Source: an uncultured Alphaproteobacteria bacterium (GTDB taxonomy: Bacteria; Pseudomonadota; Alphaproteobacteria; RF32; CAG-239). From it: a stretch of DNA of 64,000 nucleotides. The stretch spans positions 10,636 through 74,635 of the forward strand of contig CAJUCZ010000004.1 of assembly GCA_910585375.1 (NCBI GenBank), read 5' to 3'. Position numbers and translations under genes: made by a program. The notes beneath the pieces are model-generated. The model saw only the letters and a list, made by a program, of their open reading frames with translations. It was not told the DNA's origin and did no database searches. Numbering within the stretch: the first letter of the stretch is position 1; every line of letters starts with the position of its first letter. Below are positions 11,054 to 43,617 of this stretch, piece by piece.

Positions 11054-11455
11054 TTATTTTTGTTGTTGTTCCTGCATCATCTTCAAAAATTTGCCCATTT
11101 GTCCGGTTGCTTTGTTGACAAACTCGTTATATTCTTCCTTCGAGATTTTTCCGTCTTTGTTGGTGTCAAGCTGAGAAAAAGATTCGGCAGACTTCTTGCG
11201 GGTTTCTTCAATCATGTAATCAATGTATTCTTCTTGCGAGATATTGCCGTCTTTATCCTTGTCCAGCTTGTTGAACTCTTCGTCGCTGATTTCCTGAAGC
11301 TTAGCCTGCAACTGTGCAAAGTCAAGCTGCTGCGACATAACTTTGGTTGAAACGTCGGCATGAGCCAGAGCCGGAACCATTGCCAAACCGCAGAGCAGGA
11401 CATATTTAATTTTGTTCATATTCTTCTTCTCCCCAAAAAACATTACATTCTTCAC
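11054..11455 (-). CDS. secreted EF-hand calcium-binding protein
   Basis: signal peptide; two canonical EF-hand loops DKDKDGNISQEE and DTNKDGKISKEE. Confidence 0.7.
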   Translation of the reverse strand: MKNVMFFGEKKNMNKIKYVLLCGLAMVPALAHADVSTKVMSQQLDFAQLQAKLQEISDEEFNKLDKDKDGNISQEEYIDYMIEETRKKSAESFSQLDTNKDGKISKEEYNEFVNKATGQMGKFLKMMQEQQQK

Positions 11456-11521
11456 AAAAATAAATCCAAAAGATTAATATTTGCTTACTCTTATATTGTG
11501 CGGGAAGAATAGAAATTCAAC

Positions 11522-11552
11522 TTGCAAAAAAGAAAGATTCGTTTAATATAAT
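11522..11552 (+). promoter_or_regulatory. sigma70-like promoter of HTH cassette copy 1 (-35 TTGCAA, -10 TATAAT region)
   Basis: TTGCAA at 11522-11527 and AATATAAT at 11545-11552; same arrangement conserved upstream of copies 2 and 3. Confidence 0.55.
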
Positions 11553-11557
11553 AGCCG

Positions 11558-11741
11558 CAGTTCGGAGACGGGCTGTGGTGTCTAACAAACATCTCAAGTT
11601 TAGTTCCTCAATGTGGGGAGTGCCGGAAATAAGTGCGCATGCGCAACGAATAACGGCGACTGTAACTTGACAGTTTGTTAGCTCCCCGCCTTTAATTTTA
11701 AAGGCGGTTTTGTTTTAACAAAATCAAGGAGCTAAAATAAA
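11558..11741 (+). ncRNA. conserved structured 5' leader (attenuator-like) of HTH cassette copy 1
   Basis: 5' hairpin CAGTTCG-GAGA-CGGGCTG (GNRA loop); anti-SD AGCTCC at 11680-11685; intrinsic terminator CCGCCTTTA-attt-TAAAGGCGG+T-run at 11686-11716; SD AGGAGCT at 11727-11733; three homologous copies with compensatory substitutions. Confidence 0.6.
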
Positions 11742-12002
11742 ATGTTATCAAGAAAATATAGAAAAGAGTGGTATAAGACCTTCCGGAGTTATTGTAATAA
11801 AGAATTAAACCGGATGATGACGGAACAGGGCTTAACAAGTACGGAACTGGCGGATCATATAGATTTTTTTGAAGGTCGGATAGAAAAATTAAAAAGAAAT
11901 ACCAGCCATGTGAGAATGGAAGAATATGTGTATTTGTTTTCCTTTCTGGATAAGGTGTTTGAAATAAAACTTGTCGATGCCAAAGATTATCCTTGGCAGT
12001 AA
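11742..12002 (+). CDS. small helix-turn-helix (XRE-like) protein, cassette copy 1
   Basis: HTH-like segment QGLTSTELADHIDFFEGRIEKLKRN; 97% nt identity to 26782-27042 with 6 synonymous and 1 non-synonymous change (purifying selection). Confidence 0.65.
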   Translation: MLSRKYRKEWYKTFRSYCNKELNRMMTEQGLTSTELADHIDFFEGRIEKLKRNTSHVRMEEYVYLFSFLDKVFEIKLVDAKDYPWQ

Positions 12003-12003
12003 T

Positions 12004-12036
12004 AAAAAAGCGGGAGTTTTCTCCCGCTTTTTTCAT
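12004..12036 (+). terminator. intrinsic terminator after HTH gene copy 1 (GCGGGAG-ttttc-TCCCGC + T6)
   Basis: stem-loop plus T-run directly after stop codon. Confidence 0.65.
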
Positions 12037-12433
12037 TTTCTCTGTTCAGAGTACATGCTTTCTCACAAACTTTGCCATAGCACCGCGGTCTCTGAAGCAC
12101 CGTACAAACTGACGCCTCACCCGCTGGGTGCGGCCTCCCGACCGCGGTCTCATGGAACCGTATAAAACGTGCGCCACCCGCCGTGCGGGTCATCCTGAGC
12201 GAAGCGAAGGATCCAATCAAATCATATGGCTTTATTAATCAACTGGATTCTTCACTCCGTTCAGAATGACAGTACGTCTTCTTCAAAGCACTTTCTCAAT
12301 CACATCCCCGCCGGAGCATCGCGGTCCTCTGGGCACGGCGTCGGCAGCTGATCGCTCAGGCCGTCGCCTGTGGCACGGTATTTGCATTAGAGAAAGCAAA
12401 GTAAAAAAATTATCCGCGATTGGGGAGAATAAC

Positions 12434-17818: not shown

Positions 17819-17847
17819 ACTATAGCACACGAAAGCGCAAGAGTCAA
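17819..17847 (-). promoter_or_regulatory. sigma70 promoter of Cys-rich gene 1 (TTGACT-17-TATAGT on minus strand)
   Basis: -10 at 17819-17824, -35 at 17842-17847, 17-nt spacer; identical architecture upstream of paralog; conserved upstream box 17852-17879. Confidence 0.6.
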
Positions 17848-17855
17848 CACATAAT

Positions 17856-18000
17856 GAAAAGTCGGGTGGAGATTTTGGGCAGCAGGATGGGAAAAGCAGA
17901 GGGGATTTTGGCTAATCAGGGAGGAGAAAGTGGAGGGAATGGAGAAAGAATGGAAAGGCGGAAATGGGAAAATAAAAAATGAATTTAAAGATAAGGAAAT
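17856..18000 (+). repeat. polypurine (GA-rich) strand-asymmetric tract
   Basis: ~145 bp almost exclusively G/A on plus strand (GGAGGAGAAAGTGGAGGGAATGGAGAAAGAATGGAAAGG…). Confidence 0.7.
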
Positions 18001-18071
18001 GATTCTTTCTCTTGAATTCATCCTAAGCCTTATTATCTATAACGCAGACAAATTTCATAAGGGCTGAAACC

Positions 18072-19226
18072 ATGACCAAACAAGAAAAAAAGACATATGC
18101 GGAAATTTTGCTGATTTTTGCCATTATCGCTGTTGTAATATATTTTTATTATCATAAGGGAACACCGCGGCAAATGGCAGCCAAAAGCGGCGAACTGCCG
18201 GAAATCACCTTAAACGTAATGCCGGCTCAGGCGGAAAAAGTTACGGTTGACAATTCGTATATCGGCTATGTCACCCCCATAAACTCCGTGGCGGTCACAC
18301 CTTATATTAACGGTTTTCTTGAAGACATTATGGTTACCGGCGGCCAGCTTGCCGAGCAGGGCGATACTCTGGTGGTTATCCGGCAGGACGAGTATAAGGC
18401 CAATCTCAAAATGGCCGAAGCCAAGCTCATGCAGGCTCAGGCTGATTACGCCAATGCCGCGGTTTATTATAAAAGAATGCGCGAGGCCGGTGTTAAAATC
18501 ATTTCCAAAACCGAACTTGATAATGCCAAAGCCCAATATTTGTCCGCACAGGCCGCTGTTGCTGAAGCCAAAGCCAGCGTAGCGCTTGCCAAAGTCAATT
18601 ATGACTATACGGTGATTCAGGCGCCCATTTCCGGTATTGTCGGCGATGTCAGTCTGAGCCGCGGCGATTATGTTTCGCCGTCTTCGCCGCCTTTGTTTAC
18701 GATTATTCAGTATGATCCGATACGCGTTGTATTTTCTCTGACGGATAAAGAATATCTGGATGAAATCACCCGCAATCCGCAACAGCCCTTCGCCAACGAA
18801 AAAATATCGCTCCGTTTGGCCAACGGCAAAATTTATGAGGCCGCCGGACAATACAAATATATGGGCAATGAACTGGACAAGCCTACAAGCTCAATCTCTG
18901 TTTATGCCGATTTTCCCAACCCCGGCCGTGAATTGGTAGCCAATGCTTATGTTGATGTTCTGGTCGAAAAAACTTACGGCGATGTCGTGCGTGTCCGCCA
19001 AAGTTACGTCACGCTCGAGAACAAAGGCGCCTATGTTTATACGGTGCAAAACGGCAAACTGAATAAAAAGCAGGTAGAGATTATAACCGTTTCAGATAAT
19101 GACTACCTGCTCAAAAATACTTTTGCTGCCGGAGAATATATTGTGGTTGACAAAGTCGGGCGCATTGCCAAAGGCCAAAAGATAAAAACCCGTTTGATTG
19201 GGGCAGAGAACGGGGAGAAGAAATAA
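18072..19226 (+). CDS. RND efflux membrane fusion (periplasmic adaptor) protein
   Basis: HlyD/AcrA-type biotinyl-lipoyl, coiled-coil and beta-barrel regions; directly upstream of AcrB-like gene. Confidence 0.85.
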
Positions 19227-26412: not shown

Positions 26413-26566
26413 TCGGTGATTAAGTAAAAAAGTTTTACCAGCCCCGACTTACTTGGGGCTTTTATTTTTCCTGCCTCACTGCCTTCAGCTGTATTCCGGA
26501 TGCCAAGCCAATTCCTATGTCTCCACCACCCGCTTTTTCCCGTCAGTCTCCCCCAAAAAAATCCGC

Positions 26567-26597
26567 TTGCAAAAGTCATAGATTTGTTTATGATAAT
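26567..26597 (+). promoter_or_regulatory. sigma70-like promoter of HTH cassette copy 2 (TTGCAA … TATGATAAT)
   Basis: AAAAAAATCCGCTTGCAAAA block shared verbatim with copy 3. Confidence 0.55.
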
Positions 26598-26602
26598 ACC
26601 CG

Positions 26603-26781
26603 CAGTCCGGAGGCGGACTGTGGTGTCGAAAACATCTTACGAGTTAATCCGCTTTGGCGGAGTTTGGGAAATAAGCCGCTTTGCGGGCGAATAACCATAG
26701 CTGTCTCGTACAGTTTTTCGGCTCCGCCACCCTTGTTTTAGGGTGGTTTTGTTTTAATCAAAACTAGGAGCTAAAAATAAA
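26603..26781 (+). ncRNA. structured 5' leader of HTH cassette copy 2
   Basis: hairpin CAGTCCG-GAGG-CGGACTG at 26603-26620; anti-SD GGCTCC; terminator CCACCC-ttgtttta-GGGTGG + TTTTGTTTT; SD AGGAGCT; homologous to 11558-11741 and 31504-31684. Confidence 0.6.
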
Positions 26782-27042
26782 ATGTTATCAAGAAAATATA
26801 GAAAAGAGTGGTATAAAACCTTCCGGAGTTATTGCAATAAAGAATTAAACCGGATAATGACGGAACAGGGCTTAACAAGTACGGAACTGGCGGATCATAT
26901 AGATTTTTTTGAAGGTCGGATAGAAAAATTAAAAAGAAATACCAGCCATGTGAGAATGGAAGAATATGTGTATCTGTTTTCATTTCTGGATAAAGTGTTT
27001 GAAATAAAACTTGTCGACGCCAAAGATTATCCTTGGCAGTAA
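26782..27042 (+). CDS. small HTH (XRE-like) protein, cassette copy 2
   Basis: 85/86 aa identical to 11742-12002. Confidence 0.65.
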   Translation: MLSRKYRKEWYKTFRSYCNKELNRIMTEQGLTSTELADHIDFFEGRIEKLKRNTSHVRMEEYVYLFSFLDKVFEIKLVDAKDYPWQ

Positions 27043-27950
27043 TAAAAAAGCGGGAGAGAATCCCGCTTTTTTTCTTCCCTCTTCAAAACAGAAACCCTAT
27101 CACATTTCCCATTGGAGTACCGCAATCCTCAGGGCACCGTACAAACTGACGCCTCACCCGCCGGGTGTGACCGCGGGTCTCATGGCACACGTTTTGTACG
27201 GTGCCACCGGTTGTACCGGTCACCCTCTGTCTTTTTTTTATTGTCACCCTCGGGCTTCAACCCGAGGGACCATCTCACAATCGGCACAGTGCTTGTTTCC
27301 TTATGGATTCTCGGGTCGCAGCCCGAGAATGACAGTAGAAGAAAGCCGCAGAATGACAAATGCTTCAAAGCACCATTCCCCCGTCCGGCACGGTTTGTGT
27401 GCCCTTTGCGAATGGCTTAGGTTTTGGAGCAAAAACCGAAAGTGAAACACCACTCCCCTCAAGCCTGAGGGGTGGGGGAGCGCTAAGTAAAAACAACCGC
27501 AGCTCCGGTTGTTTTTGTCTGCAAGCTCTTTGGAACATCTTGGCAAGCGAGGAAAGCGTTAGCAACCGCAGCGAGCCTAGATGCCTAAGTTGCCCCGCCC
27601 GATTACCGAATGATTTCTTAGCTTTTGGCCCAAAGAGGCGAATATTAAGTACTGAGCCTTGGAACGTAGTGATGTTTGTGGCTGCCGGCCTCCCGGCCTT
27701 TGGGTTGAAAGCTTAGAAAATGAGGTTGGGCTTGACTTTTGCCATTTATTCCTCCCCTGAAGCACATCCTCACATCCGGCATGGTTTGGGTGCCCTTTGC
27801 GAATGGCTTAGGTTTTGGAGCAAAAACCGAAAGTGAAGCACAATGGTAGAGAGCGTAGCGAGATTAATTTTGCTCTGAAACCTTAGCAAATGAGCGTAGG
27901 GCTGCCTTTTTGGTTACTTTTTGGCAGTCAAAAAGTAACAATAAAAAATA
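27043..27950 (+). repeat. non-coding repeat/palindrome-rich region (cassette 3' tail plus ~85-bp direct repeats 27366-27450 and 27757-27842; palindromes at 27133-27205, 27247-27268, 27308-27329, 27490-27520, 27912-27938)
   Basis: no credible ORF; multiple perfect inverted repeats (CCCTCGGG…CCCGAGGG; TTCTCGGG…CCCGAGAA; GTTACTTTTTG-gcagt-CAAAAAGTAAC) and an 85-bp direct repeat 390 bp apart. Confidence 0.6.
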
Positions 27951-27961
27951 AACAACTCTAT

Positions 27962-28320
27962 GAAGAAAACAAAACCAGAAAATAAAAAAAGAAAAACAAC
28001 GAAAAAAGAGAGGAGTAAAGAGAGCGGAGAACAAAAGGGACAAGGGGGCGGGAAAAAGAAAGTAGTGGGGAGATCAGAGAACGGGAAGCGGAGAAGACGG
28101 TGCGGGGAGTGATAGGGCGGAAAGAGAGCGGAGAACAAAAGGAACGGGGAAGCAGGAAAAAGAAAGTAGCGGGGAATGAGGAAAAAGAGAGGAGAAAAAA
28201 CGAAAGAGGGAAAAAGGAAAAATGCGGGGAGTGTGGAATGAGAGGAGAGGACTAAACATCCCCTGATGAGAAAATAAATATGAGTAATGAGATAAAAGAA
28301 AATGAAGAAAACGGGATATA
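27962..28320 (+). repeat. long polypurine (A/G) tract with internal ~104-bp imperfect tandem repeat
   Basis: >90% purines on plus strand for ~360 bp; unit AAAGAGAGCGGAGAACAAAAGG… at 28017 and 28121. Confidence 0.75.
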
Positions 28321-28323
28321 ATA

Positions 28324-28341
28324 AAAGGGGCAAAGCCCCTT
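28324..28341 (-). terminator. intrinsic terminator of proS (GGGGC-ttt-GCCCC flanked by A/T runs)
   Basis: hairpin AAAGGGGCAAAGCCCCTTTT immediately after proS stop. Confidence 0.6.
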
Positions 28342-28344
28342 TTA

Positions 28345-29862
28345 TCAATAGGATCTGGCGTAAATCACATCCATAGTCGCCGGCTTGCCGGTCAGCAGAC
28401 AAACGCCTTCACTGTTGCTCTGGTCAAACGGGATACAACGGATTGTAATCTTCATCTCTTTGAGGATTTCCTCAGTCTGCGGATCAGCACACCACTTTCC
28501 GCGGACAAAAGCAACTTTTCCGGCCTTGCCGTCGGCAATCCACTCGTTGGCCTGGCCAAAATAGTTGCGGAATTCTTCCGGCGAAGTAATATCTGTACGG
28601 ATGTTTGACATTAAACGATTCTTGGCGCGGTCAAACATCTCGGATTGAATATTTTCCAAACGTGCAACAATTGAATTTTCAAATTCTTCAACGGAAAGAA
28701 TCTGTTTGCCTTCCGGCGTATTGAGTTTAAGGCGTTCTTTAACCATAACTTTGCCGCCGTCCACATCACGCATGCCGATTTCGCAAATAACCGGCGCGCC
28801 TTTCTTGGTCCATTCCCAAAACTTGTCAACGCTCTTGCGGTCACGCTTGTCAACCTTGATGCGGATTTTTTCGCCAAACGGTGCCTTTGCCTTGAGAGCG
28901 GCTTGCAGTTTGGCAATATAATCCATAATTTTGTCTTCGTCTTCCGGATTTTTGATAACCGGAATAATAACCACCTGATACGGTGCAATTCTGGGCGGAA
29001 CAACCATGCCGTCATCATCGGCATGAGTCATAATCACGCCACCGATAAGACGGGTTGAAACCCCCCATGAAGTTGTATAAGCATATTCCTGCTCATTATT
29101 TTTGTTTACAAAAGAAATATTGGCAGATTTTGCAAAATTCTGTCCGAGAAAATGTGATGTTCCGGCCTGCAGGGCTTTACCGTCCTGCATCATGGCTTCA
29201 ACGCAATAAGTGTCAATTGCGCCGGGGAACTTCTCATGCTCCGGCTTGCGGCCGGTCAAAACCGGCATGGCAAGAGTTTCTTCGCAAAGTTCGCGATACG
29301 CTTCCAGCATACGTTTGGTTTCTTCTTCGGCTTCGTTGGCTGTGGAATGGGCAGTATGGCCTTCCTGCCAGAGAAATTCGCGGGTACGCAAAAACAGGCG
29401 CGGACGCATTTCCCAACGCACAACGTTAGCCCACTGATTGACCAGAACCGGAAGATCGCGATAAGATTTGACCCATTTGGAAAACGAGTCGGCAATAATG
29501 GCTTCCGACGTCGGACGGACGATTAAAGGCTCTTCAAGTTTTGAATCCGGAACAAGCTTGCCGTCTTTCATTGATAGGCGGGAATGGGTGACAACCGCCA
29601 TTTCTTTGGCAAAACCGTCAACATGCTCAGCTTCTTTCTGAAAGAATGAAAGCGGAATAAACATAGGAAAATAGCAGTTTTCATGATCGGTAGATTTGAT
29701 TTTCTCGTCAAAAACGTCGCGGATACGCTCCCAAATGCCGTATCCCCACGGCTTAATCACCATACATCCGGGAGAAGACGAGTTCTCGGCCATGTCGGCT
29801 TCATTGATAACATTTTGATACCATTCAGGATAGTTGCCTGCTCTAGTGGATTTTAATACCAT
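28345..29862 (-). CDS. proS: prolyl-tRNA synthetase, archaeal/eukaryotic-type (no insertion/editing domain, C-terminal Zn-domain ending in Tyr)
   Basis: class II motifs; 505 aa; terminal …IYARSY characteristic of archaeal-type ProRS. Confidence 0.9.
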   Translation of the reverse strand: MVLKSTRAGNYPEWYQNVINEADMAENSSSPGCMVIKPWGYGIWERIRDVFDEKIKSTDHENCYFPMFIPLSFFQKEAEHVDGFAKEMAVVTHSRLSMKDGKLVPDSKLEEPLIVRPTSEAIIADSFSKWVKSYRDLPVLVNQWANVVRWEMRPRLFLRTREFLWQEGHTAHSTANEAEEETKRMLEAYRELCEETLAMPVLTGRKPEHEKFPGAIDTYCVEAMMQDGKALQAGTSHFLGQNFAKSANISFVNKNNEQEYAYTTSWGVSTRLIGGVIMTHADDDGMVVPPRIAPYQVVIIPVIKNPEDEDKIMDYIAKLQAALKAKAPFGEKIRIKVDKRDRKSVDKFWEWTKKGAPVICEIGMRDVDGGKVMVKERLKLNTPEGKQILSVEEFENSIVARLENIQSEMFDRAKNRLMSNIRTDITSPEEFRNYFGQANEWIADGKAGKVAFVRGKWCADPQTEEILKEMKITIRCIPFDQSNSEGVCLLTGKPATMDVIYARSY

Positions 29863-31467: not shown

Positions 31468-31684
31468 TTGCAAAATCTTTGTAATACATTATGATAACTC
31501 TCGCAGTCCGGAGACGGACTGTGGTGTCTCAAAACATCTTACAGATTTTCCACCATGAGGTGGAGTGCCTAAAATAAGCCGCTTTGCGGACGAATCATGG
31601 CGACTGTGTCTGTACAGTTTTGAGCTCCACCACCTTAGTTTCTAAGGTGGTTTTGTTTTAACAAAATTATGGAGCTAAAAAATA
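31468..31684 (+). ncRNA. promoter (TTGCAA-16-TATGAT) plus structured 5' leader of HTH cassette copy 3
   Basis: hairpin CAGTCCG-GAGA-CGGACTG at 31504-31521; anti-SD AGCTCC; terminator CACCACCTTAG-tttc-TAAGGTGG + TTTTGTTTT; SD GGAGCT; ATG 31685. Confidence 0.6.
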
Positions 31685-31957
31685 ATGAAGAATATAAAAT
31701 ATCAATCCAGAGCGACAAATCCGCTGAAAGCGATTCACCGGACGCTGGGTTTCGCCTTTTACTGCGAAAGGCGAAAAGACGAGATTCCGTTAAAAAAAGT
31801 CAGCAAGAAACTAAAAGTCCCAACCGAATATATAGAAGATTTGGAATTAGGACGCGGCAAAATCAGACCGTGGCTGATAAAAGAACTTCTGGAATATTAT
31901 AATAGAAAAATATCAGTCTACCTTGACATACCGGAAGATAAGATGAAAAAGAACTAA
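31685..31957 (+). CDS. small HTH (XRE-like) protein, cassette copy 3 (divergent paralog)
   Basis: HTH segment KKVSKKLKVPTEYIEDLELGRGKIRPWLIKEL; same leader/terminator/tail context as copies 1-2. Confidence 0.55.
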   Translation: MKNIKYQSRATNPLKAIHRTLGFAFYCERRKDEIPLKKVSKKLKVPTEYIEDLELGRGKIRPWLIKELLEYYNRKISVYLDIPEDKMKKN

Positions 31958-32113
31958 AACAAAAGCGGGCTTAACCTCCCGCTTTTTTCATTTCAAAGCA
32001 CCATCTCCCCCACAAACCCCGCCATAGCATCGCGGTCCTCAGAGCAGGGTGTTAACAACCGAAGCCTCACCCGCCGGGTGCGGCCTCCCGACAGCAGCCG
32101 ATGTTCGGCAAAT

Positions 32114-33753: not shown

Positions 33754-33830
33754 GGGGGCGTAGTTCAGCTGGTTAGAATACATGCCTGTCACGCATGGGG
33801 TCGCGAGTTCGAGCCTCGTCGCTCCCGCCA
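33754..33830 (+). tRNA. tRNA-Asp (anticodon GUC)
   Basis: cloverleaf: acceptor GGGGGCG/CGCTCCC, D-arm TAGTTCAGCTGGTTAGAATA, anticodon stem CATGC/GCATG loop CUGUCAC, T-arm GCGAG-TTCGAGC-CTCGT, discriminator G, CCA encoded. Confidence 0.9.
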
Positions 33831-33841
33831 TTATAAAAAAA

Positions 33842-33911
33842 AGCTGCCTTTATGGCGGCTTTTTTTATAATATCAGGGTAGCAGAGGCTCGAACTCGGAA
33901 GAGCCCGCTAA
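33842..33911 (+). repeat. 70-bp direct repeat copy A (terminator hairpin AGCTGCC-ttta-TGGCGGCT + T7, plus tRNA T-arm-like fragment)
   Basis: 69/70 identical to 34179-34248; contains RC of a tRNA-Asp-like T-arm (CCGAGTTCGAGCCTCTG). Confidence 0.7.
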
Positions 33912-33941
33912 GGAAATTTTACCGAGCTCCGGTAAAATTTC
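33912..33941. repeat. near-perfect palindrome GGAAATTTTACCG-agctc-CGGTAAAATTTC (12-bp arms)
   Basis: seen directly; lies between the two 70-bp direct repeats. Confidence 0.7.
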
Positions 33942-34178
33942 TCTGCAAGAGCAATGACATCTTAGTGAAAGAGGGCGTGTGAGCAACCGAATTGAACTTA
34001 GATGCCATTGGACGAAGCTGCGAAGCAGCGTGCCTCGTTGCTCCCAAAAAACATCCTGATTAAAGCTTGTGAGCGAGAGGGCAAAGCGAAACAAGCGTTA
34101 CATAGCGGTGCCCGCAGCGAGTTAGCGTTGCGAATGAAGGTAATGCTTACAAGCCGGAAAAGCCTCATCACAAATTTG

Positions 34179-34248
34179 AGCTGCCTTTATGGCGGCTTTT
34201 TTTATAATGTCAGGGTAGCAGAGGCTCGAACTCGGAAGAGCCCGCTAA
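34179..34248 (+). repeat. 70-bp direct repeat copy B
   Basis: see copy A; spacing 337 bp. Confidence 0.7.
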
Positions 34249-43557: not shown

Positions 43558-43617
43558 ACTATAGCACAATAAAATACCTGTGTCAATATGCAATGAAAAG
43601 TCGAGTAGAGATTTTGG
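43558..43617 (-). promoter_or_regulatory. sigma70 promoter of Cys-rich gene 2 (TTGACA-17-TATAGT) with conserved upstream box
   Basis: -10 43558-43563, -35 43581-43586; box CCAAAATCTCTACTCGACTTTTCATT (minus strand) ~27/28 identical to gene-1 box. Confidence 0.6.

Follow-up and report, generated by a model that had tools for sequence, protein, structure and literature searches.

We analysed a 64-kb window of DNA from an uncultured alphaproteobacterium (contig CAJUCZ010000004.1 of assembly GCA_910585375.1; positions are counted from the first letter of the window), focusing on the segment 27043-28320 between a gene for an 86-amino-acid (aa) helix-turn-helix (HTH)-like protein (26782-27042, plus strand), with a FlaF gene further upstream, and the convergent proS (28345-29862, minus strand). 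An initial annotation had described this segment as gene-free and packed with palindromes, including a direct repeat and a long purine tract, and had read the hairpins as a sign of one or more small RNAs. The segment is indeed non-coding, unusual and full of non-random palindromes and repeats, and nearly all of the features listed at the time are present beyond chance, but the reading placed on them is only partly supported. The features all prove to be modules of one dispersed, strain-variable composite repeat, and the region is a stack of small, repeated DNA modules that was inserted recently and holds no decayed gene.

The insertion is apparent from relatives of the proS site. For comparison we used short-read metagenome contigs labelled L004-L045, in which junctions that cross repeats, notably in L039 and in some HTH contexts, may be chimeric. 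In L025-L029, at 85-90% identity of prolyl-tRNA synthetase (ProRS), an EF-hand gene lies 10-100 nucleotides (nt) beyond proS and the site is empty, and in L023/L024, at 93% ProRS identity, the order is proS, an array of ~770 nt, the HTH gene and the EF-hand gene. With the site empty in these relatives and filled in the 93% relative, the HTH cassette and the array together represent a ~1.35 kb insertion into an ancestrally tight junction. In the window, the EF-hand gene is found at 11054-11455, beside another copy of the HTH cassette (11513-12196). The initial annotation had pointed out that a collinear, degraded pseudogene in relatives would speak for simple gene decay; what the relatives display is the empty site, with no decayed gene. 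Variation also extends to the closest strains: L004, identical in ProRS, is without a heptamer-bounded block of ~690 nt (roughly 27073-27757) and without one 104-nt unit of the purine tail, and differs by a further 1-nt indel.

Module junctions in the arrays carry an RAAGCAC-like heptamer, present in the window at 27367, 27444 (as GAAACAC), 27759 and 27835. Repeat alignment and junction comparison place between these heptamers two plus-strand copies of a core repeat, copy 1 (27367-27450) reading AAAGCAC, a 70-nt core and its own 3' heptamer GAAACAC, and copy 2 (27759-27841) reading GAAGCAC, a 69-nt core and GAAGCAC. They correspond to the direct repeat that had been given as 85 bp; the repeat is real, while its length comes to 77 nt (27374-27450 and 27765-27841, 91% identity), and no chance matches are expected for the 30-nt core at its centre. 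Copy 1 occupies the junction between a hairpin resembling repetitive extragenic palindromic (REP) sequences and a CCCTC hairpin, a site that L011 and the window have filled and L013 has empty; copy 2 occupies that between modules C and A, which lacks the core in L014, L020 and L031 and holds it in L011, L013 and L021. These filled and empty sites identify the direct repeat as a miniature insertion of ~77 nt that is present twice. The core has subterminal hairpins (GGCAC/GTGCC and GGTTTT/AAAACC), no inverted ends, a single orientation and RAAGCAC as its target. Of 22 copies, 14 have GAAGCAC as their 3' heptamer, independent of the heptamer at the 5' side; since the target heptamer recurs at the 3' end of the core itself, the flanking heptamers could also be an ordinary 7-bp target duplication.

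The suggestion that the rest of the genome be searched for copies of this repeat was followed beyond the window, with the modules recurring, arranged and oriented alike, at 20 or more loci in three species of gut alphaproteobacterial metagenome-assembled genomes (MAGs) and in metagenomes. Among 185,579 species genomes, the 30-nt centre of the core was found in only 3, at 7 loci in total; all three are MAGs of uncultured gut (alpha)proteobacteria, and the matches often lie at contig ends. A degenerate core pattern added 7 further metagenome loci. A plasmid or viral origin was rejected, given that there was no plasmid match and that the core pattern was found neither in viral contigs nor in plasmids, module B alone appearing in three unverified gut records named 'Bacteriophage sp.'. 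A 26-codon reading of the core was likewise dismissed, as indels of 1-2 nt between copies break the frame, and so was a diversity-generating retroelement, since the two core copies do not differ specifically at adenines and only one locus adjoins a reverse transcriptase. At that locus (L014, 511-2868), the array abuts a diversity-generating retroelement with a bAvd-like protein and the reverse transcriptase.

Module maps of ~20 loci share one order and one orientation, in variable combinations, as in the mosaic repeats known as bacterial interspersed mosaic elements (BIMEs) and Rhizobium-specific intergenic mosaic elements (RIMEs). The array runs from an optional module M1 through REP-like hairpins, a core, optional modules B and C and an optional second core to module A with its palindrome and, at the end, the purine tail, and the succession of core, A and tail is kept in at least 10 loci.

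The REP-like part comprises the two CTCGGG...CCCGAG palindromes noted before, which jointly fold as one hairpin of ~115 nt (27231-27345; z = -5.07, with 0 of 200 shuffles as good). It is a REPIN-like inverted doublet, with one hairpin in minus orientation (27240-27270) and the other in plus orientation (27305-27334), the latter reading GGAT-TCTCGGG-tcgcag-CCCGAGA-ATGACA; inverted short, imperfect palindromes (about 20-30 nt) with a short spacer that fold together are the structural hallmark of REPINs, which number tens to hundreds of extragenic copies in a genome. Inverted pairs ~60 nt apart are also present in L017 and L023 (two pairs). The hairpins follow the pattern GGAT-NNNN-GGG-loop-CCC-NNNN-ATGACA, with covarying stems (TCTC/GAGA, TGCC/GGCA, CCCC/GGGG and TCCC/GGGA), and 13 copies with perfect stems occur in ~120 kb of fetched loci. 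In L009 (~690-880) and, on the reverse strand, in L015, an insert of ~185 nt splits the loop of a REP-like hairpin (ggattctcgggt[...]tcaagcccgagaatgaca), and by analogy it resembles the insertion sequences that target REP loops.

Locus comparison further delineates a plus-strand unit at 27451-27756, formed by a CCCCTC/GAGGGG hairpin (27455-27472) and module C (27596-27756) and split by module B (27470-27600, plus strand), a structured element of ~115 nt. The hairpin-C unit is without B in L010, L012 and L013 and with B in L011 and L014, and in L033 module B sits in one copy of a duplicated sequence; module B thus behaves as an insertion. Its helix P1 (27489-27516), terminator-like on both strands and followed by a second long helix, is the terminator-like hairpin of the initial annotation, found as AAAAACAACCG-cagctc-CGGTTGTTTTT (z = -3.5). 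Across 8 copies, 31 pairs are formed in 97.9% of cells and 14 pairs are compensated, a result equalled in 0 of 500 shuffles, with 1-4 compensated pairs in slid controls. Module B is, on this comparative evidence, predicted to adopt a covariation-supported three-helix fold. A covariance model (R1) recovered 10 full-length copies on the modelled strand, among them one in the window at 33895-34021, 3' of tRNA-Asp, and three copies lie in two of the three 'Bacteriophage sp.' records. Around that window copy lies an 83-nt direct repeat (33829-33911 and 34166-34248, 92% identical) that comes after tRNA-Asp (33754-33830) and includes the tRNA terminator; the pair brackets ~250 nt with the module B copy, the P1 stem of which is fully compensated. 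Another small element, the 19-nt GC-rich mini-hairpin GGCTGCCGGCCTCCCGGCC (27680-27698), occupies other positions in L004, L014 and L038; in L038 it is embedded in the palindrome of module A and looks like one more tiny insertion.

Module A (27842-27945, plus strand), 97-99% identical in L009, L013, L016, L017, L021 and L022, has at its 3' end the palindrome with 11-bp arms reported earlier, which we located at 27913-27939 as GTTACTTTTTG-gcagt-CAAAAAGTAAC. The palindrome is kept via compensatory variants, with GTTAC/GTAAC, GCTAC/GTAGC (L020, L031) and CTTAC/GTAAG (L014). It was also considered as an operator for the HTH protein, an idea abandoned as the half-site CAAAAAGTAAC recurs in the window no more than by chance. 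Facing the tail, 27921-27949 reads TTGGCA-N17-AAAAAT, a weak likeness to a promoter of the kind that chance alone would give in this region (3 found, 2.9 expected).

The purine-rich tail (27946-28320, plus strand) starts and ends in conserved sequence (caactctatgaagaaa... and ggactaaacatcccctgatgagaaaataa..., respectively), and the two tandem 104-nt units previously described within it could be confirmed, starting at 28012 and 28116 and being 85% identical. The description of the tract as more than 90% purine and strand-pure was overstated: it is 84-86% purine, with ~15% pyrimidines scattered throughout, and its longest pure-purine runs measure 23 and 21 nt. It nonetheless stands out, as among 100-nt windows across the 64 kb (mean 51% purine, standard deviation 7%) only 27923-28287 and 17875-18002 reach 80%. 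No secondary structure was found in the tail, nor a 3-nt phase of the pyrimidines. In at least 10 loci the tail is always 3' of module A on the same strand, internal blocks are common to different loci, and the length ranges from ~60 nt (L009) to ~520 nt (L038). Comparing tract lengths across strains, as had been proposed, revealed differences even between near-identical ones, the proS locus alone offering five forms: ~360 nt with two 104-nt units in the window (the ProRS reference), ~250 nt in L004 (identical ProRS), a (GAGGA)n expansion in L030 (99%), ~130 nt in L031 (97%) and an A-rich ~100 nt in L023 (93%). L039, one of the contigs flagged above, follows the array of the window until ~28050 and continues with an L038-like tail and a different flanking gene. 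By these comparisons, the purine tract is the conserved terminal module of the array, changing in length between near-identical strains. Beyond it lies the bidirectional intrinsic terminator shared with convergent proS (28327-28343, GGGGC-aaa-GCCCC and a T run), conserved in L004, L023, L030 and L031.

Several further readings of the tail were tried and set aside. An ORF (open reading frame) at the tail start, MKKxKPENKK, lacks a Shine-Dalgarno sequence and runs, according to locus, for only 8 to 50 codons before a stop; a hammerhead ribozyme was proposed from CUGAUGAG at the tail end, where there is no adjacent stem and no Rfam match; and as a sponge the tail offers CsrA-type GGA, Shine-Dalgarno-like GGAG/GAGG/AGGA and GGGG (G-quadruplex) motifs that are not enriched over composition (z -0.2 to 1.3), and no A-R-N phase of the Hfq type. 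The other GA-tract that had been mentioned (17856-18000) is purine-rich (79%), but it is not of the same flavour, as kinship of the two tracts was rejected: 17875-18002 belongs to a different repeat family. This second purine-rich family is found at 17819-18002 and 43558-43617 in the window, in L017 (477-586) and in L023 (2163-2229); the first copy ends in AAGGAAATG and a 23-codon ORF, directly upstream of the membrane-fusion gene of a resistance-nodulation-division (RND) efflux system at 18072. Simple-sequence expansions, too, are present at array edges, as (CTCCACCT)n upstream of the array in L031 (2560-2625) and as the (GAGGA)n in the L030 tail, both at contig ends.

Insertion, dispersal, the junction grammar, filled and empty sites and strain polymorphism are all established at the level of sequence comparison. 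We consider it probable, if by some distance not assured, that the region makes up the non-coding portion of an interspersed repeat, composite and specific to this lineage, namely a nest of small non-autonomous mobile modules. These modules would have accumulated, all in one orientation, downstream of the multi-copy HTH gene cassette, moved in trans by an enzyme whose gene would lie elsewhere in the genome and that would recognise the hairpins and the heptamer. The subterminal hairpins, the lack of terminal inverted repeats and the fixed orientation and target hint at a REP-associated tyrosine transposase (RAYT) or an IS200/IS605-type single-strand transposase. Each insertion would regenerate the heptamer, so that arrays could grow. 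The tail may be without sequence-specific function, growing and shrinking through replication slippage, unequal crossing-over of the 104-nt units and ectopic recombination between the tails of different loci, and any consequence for the host, for instance termination or insulation between convergent genes, would be secondary.

A number of observations weigh against such a nest of mobile modules. Neither a transposase nor a recombinase was found within the 64-kb window or in any fetched locus, and the heptamer is not enriched window-wide (16 found, 19 expected). Moreover, ~50 bases of the core are near-invariant across species, which a selected function, as an RNA or as a protein-binding platform, could explain; selection for function could also be reflected in the covariation of module B and in the strict orientation and order that the modules have in common. 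The covariation is, on the other hand, equally expected of a hairpin that serves a transposase as single-stranded DNA.

Such a selected function might lie in regulatory RNAs encoded by the array, a small RNA from module B, a purine-rich RNA or both, which we regard as unlikely, yet as a tentative alternative worth setting out. Module B would most sensibly be read from the minus strand, as a 5' stem-loop followed by a terminator, and its three-helix fold with 14 of 31 pairs compensated is congruent with an RNA; no conserved promoter flanks it on either strand, however, and the counts of G-U against A-C pairs (7 versus 3) leave the strand undecided. For the tail, a promoter in the module A palindrome would yield an unstructured plus-strand RNA of ~385 nt (~27957-28343) that runs to the proS terminator and might act by titrating ribosomes or an RNA-binding protein. 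TTGGCA-N17-AAAAAT precedes the tail at most loci, with three tandem copies kept in L015, an intrinsic terminator stands 3' of the tail here and in L009 and L022, and the conservation of both tail ends between loci points the same way. Against it, the promoter-like match does not exceed chance, the tail motifs are unenriched and without phase, and the length and sequence of the tail differ between near-identical strains. Small RNAs were not established for the region: no module has a conserved promoter, there is no Rfam match, and the fold of the core repeat does not surpass that of its shuffled versions (z between -0.5 and +0.7). Rfam 15 at gathering score returned only two tRNAs in the window and none in the region, and at permissive thresholds the best sub-threshold matches in the region were microRNA-like hairpins, with nothing credible among them. 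A more far-reaching idea, somewhat less likely again, is that the arrays are the product of an undescribed heptamer-targeted cassette-insertion system that stacks structured non-coding modules in one orientation behind a mobile HTH gene under riboswitch-like regulation; palindrome and tail would then be a functional end and not debris of slippage, serving as an outward promoter for a long, purine-rich RNA without structure or as a platform for recombination.

A host-serving intergenic element of the BIME type, in which the hairpins stabilise or terminate the HTH and proS transcripts and the minus-strand tail acts as a Rho-loading back-up terminator behind proS, strikes us as decidedly improbable. 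The array does lie between convergent genes here and in L009, L011, L014 and L022, it contains bidirectional terminator hairpins, and the minus strand of the tail is unstructured with 35% C and 8% G; at L013/L016, L015 and L018, by contrast, the tail precedes a co-directional gene, relatives do without any array at the proS site, and proS has an intrinsic terminator of its own. That the purine tract is under selection to adopt H-DNA (triplex) or some other non-B structure, with a regulatory effect on recombination or on neighbouring genes, appears very improbable. H-DNA needs an uninterrupted mirror-repeat homopurine-homopyrimidine run that is long enough to fold back. The strong strand asymmetry conserved at every locus, the partly mirror-symmetric purine runs of 21-23 nt at 28178-28222 and the apparent occurrence of recombination breakpoints in the tails would be in keeping with such a role, but the pyrimidines interrupt the tract throughout with no pure run above 23 nt, its length and sequence vary between strains, and in several relatives the tail is mostly A-rich and 60-100 nt long; H-DNA formation would be possible for short runs only. 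The least credible proposal, to which we attach hardly any weight, is that a gene has decayed here or that metagenome assembly has produced an artefact. It could draw on the fact that, the statement of no credible ORF notwithstanding, mechanical ORFs of 102-162 aa exist, and that MAG contigs of this clade repeatedly break at the arrays, many of them inside the tract. The statement holds insofar as the three longest ORFs (118-162 aa) are without a Pfam match, and the relatives have an empty site and no homologous gene. Furthermore, three assemblies from different samples agree on the arrangement of the window at 99.8-100% over their common parts, and contig breaks are expected from repeats and strain variation.

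Returning to the nest of small mobile modules, the closest parallels are found among known interspersed repeats. BIMEs of enterobacteria and RIMEs of Rhizobium and Sinorhizobium are extragenic multi-copy mosaics of palindromic units and conserved non-palindromic linkers. Like the arrays described here, they often lie between convergent genes or after operons and vary in composition by locus and strain; the present arrays differ in having longer modules (70-160 nt) that point in one direction, a heptamer at the junctions, a purine tail of up to 520 nt and often an attached small HTH gene cassette, and there is no sequence similarity. Small modular intergenic repeats of variable module number are also represented by the pneumococcal BOX and the Neisseria Correia elements, which may carry terminators or promoters. 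The arrays share this modularity, while sequences, hosts and architecture are unrelated and the long purine-rich terminal module is confined to the arrays. Integron cassette arrays resemble them in having polar units of one orientation with a conserved 7-nt core site at each junction; here, by contrast, neither an integrase nor attC-type imperfect inverted repeats occur, and the arrays consist of non-coding units with heptamers in direct, not inverted, arrangement. With miniature elements derived from IS200/IS605 (palindrome-associated transposable elements), which insert beside a fixed target of 4-7 nt, the core and module B share the absence of terminal inverted repeats, the subterminal hairpins and the single orientation beside a short sequence, but no TnpA (an HUH Y1 transposase) was found in the window or the fetched loci, and the core 3' end repeats the target heptamer. 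To our knowledge, uniform orientation, a junction heptamer, a multi-copy HTH cassette and a long purine terminal module are not features of described families.

REPINs, finally, are mobilised by RAYT transposases (Bertels & Rainey 2011, PMC3116915; PMC3337134). The doublet at 27231-27345 agrees with them in consisting of two inverted REP-like palindromes of ~30 nt that form one long hairpin, in its covarying stems and in the occurrence of doublets, whereas no RAYT gene is found in the window or flanks, a GTAG-type flanking tetranucleotide is missing and the doublet is one module of a larger array. With no cognate transposase seen in the window and the fetched loci, we do not claim membership of the REPIN or IS200/IS605 groups. 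By analogy, the region works like a BIME/RIME-type mosaic with a REPIN-like component and insertions that resemble miniature inverted-repeat transposable elements.

A conspicuous gene-free, structure-rich region is in this way explained by a mobile-repeat architecture and not by gene decay. The analysis also defines unclassified elements in an uncultured human-gut alphaproteobacterial clade, namely a heptamer-targeted 77-nt insertion, a covarying 115-nt module and a hypervariable purine-rich tail, that could serve as strain markers and as test cases for REPIN-like population diversification. The repeats moreover appear to reshape these genomes, as illustrated by tails that recombine between loci and by a ~14-kb flagellar and efflux segment between cassettes. 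In this segment, cassette copies in direct orientation (11513-12196 and 26558-27226) bracket flgF, flgG, flgA, flgH, a FlaF-like gene, an RND efflux operon, a glutathione S-transferase (GST) gene and FlaF, and, together with the contiguous order in L023, the bracketing suggests integration or rearrangement through recombination between cassette copies.

The HTH cassette itself is a repeat of ~680 bp (26558-27226), 81% identical to 11513-12196 and related to 31951-32085. Its last part is module M1 (27085-27226, plus strand), made up of a CT-rich leader, a long hairpin and an ACCGGT-tgt-ACCGGT hairpin. The long hairpin with the 14-bp stem is thereby the tail end of the cassette repeat; it is present as described at 27133-27205 around CACCCGCCGGGTG (DNA fold z = -3.67), as is the adjoining ACCGGT-tgt-ACCGGT, and the T run that had been given as T9 is T8. 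The gene is followed by an intrinsic terminator (27050-27073, plus strand, GCGGGA...TCCCGC and T7) that belongs to the cassette and is kept 3' of every gene copy. The protein encoded in the 11513-12196 copy differs from the product of 26782-27042 by one residue, and an identical 86-aa protein is encoded at at least 7 different genomic sites, usually with an array next to it. The protein (26782-27042, 11742-12002 and L038-L045) is weakly Cro/C1-like and its family comprises 12 clusters among 5.8 billion proteins, which indicates a lineage-restricted, multi-copy gene; an AlphaFold2 model (mean pLDDT 57.5) was too poor for a fold search. Upstream of the gene lies a leader (26572-26781) with copies at 11527-11741 and 31473-31684 and in L020, L023, L038, L040-L042 and L045. 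The leader opens with a good promoter, TTGCAA-N16-TATGAT, followed by a predicted structured RNA of ~190 nt that matches no Rfam family, with a long-range helix and an intrinsic terminator, and 19 of the 53 predicted pairs exhibit compensatory changes, with many G-U pairs. A GCUCC segment is predicted to pair with the GGAGC ribosome-binding site of the 86-aa ORF, making the sequence a candidate for a new cis-regulatory leader.

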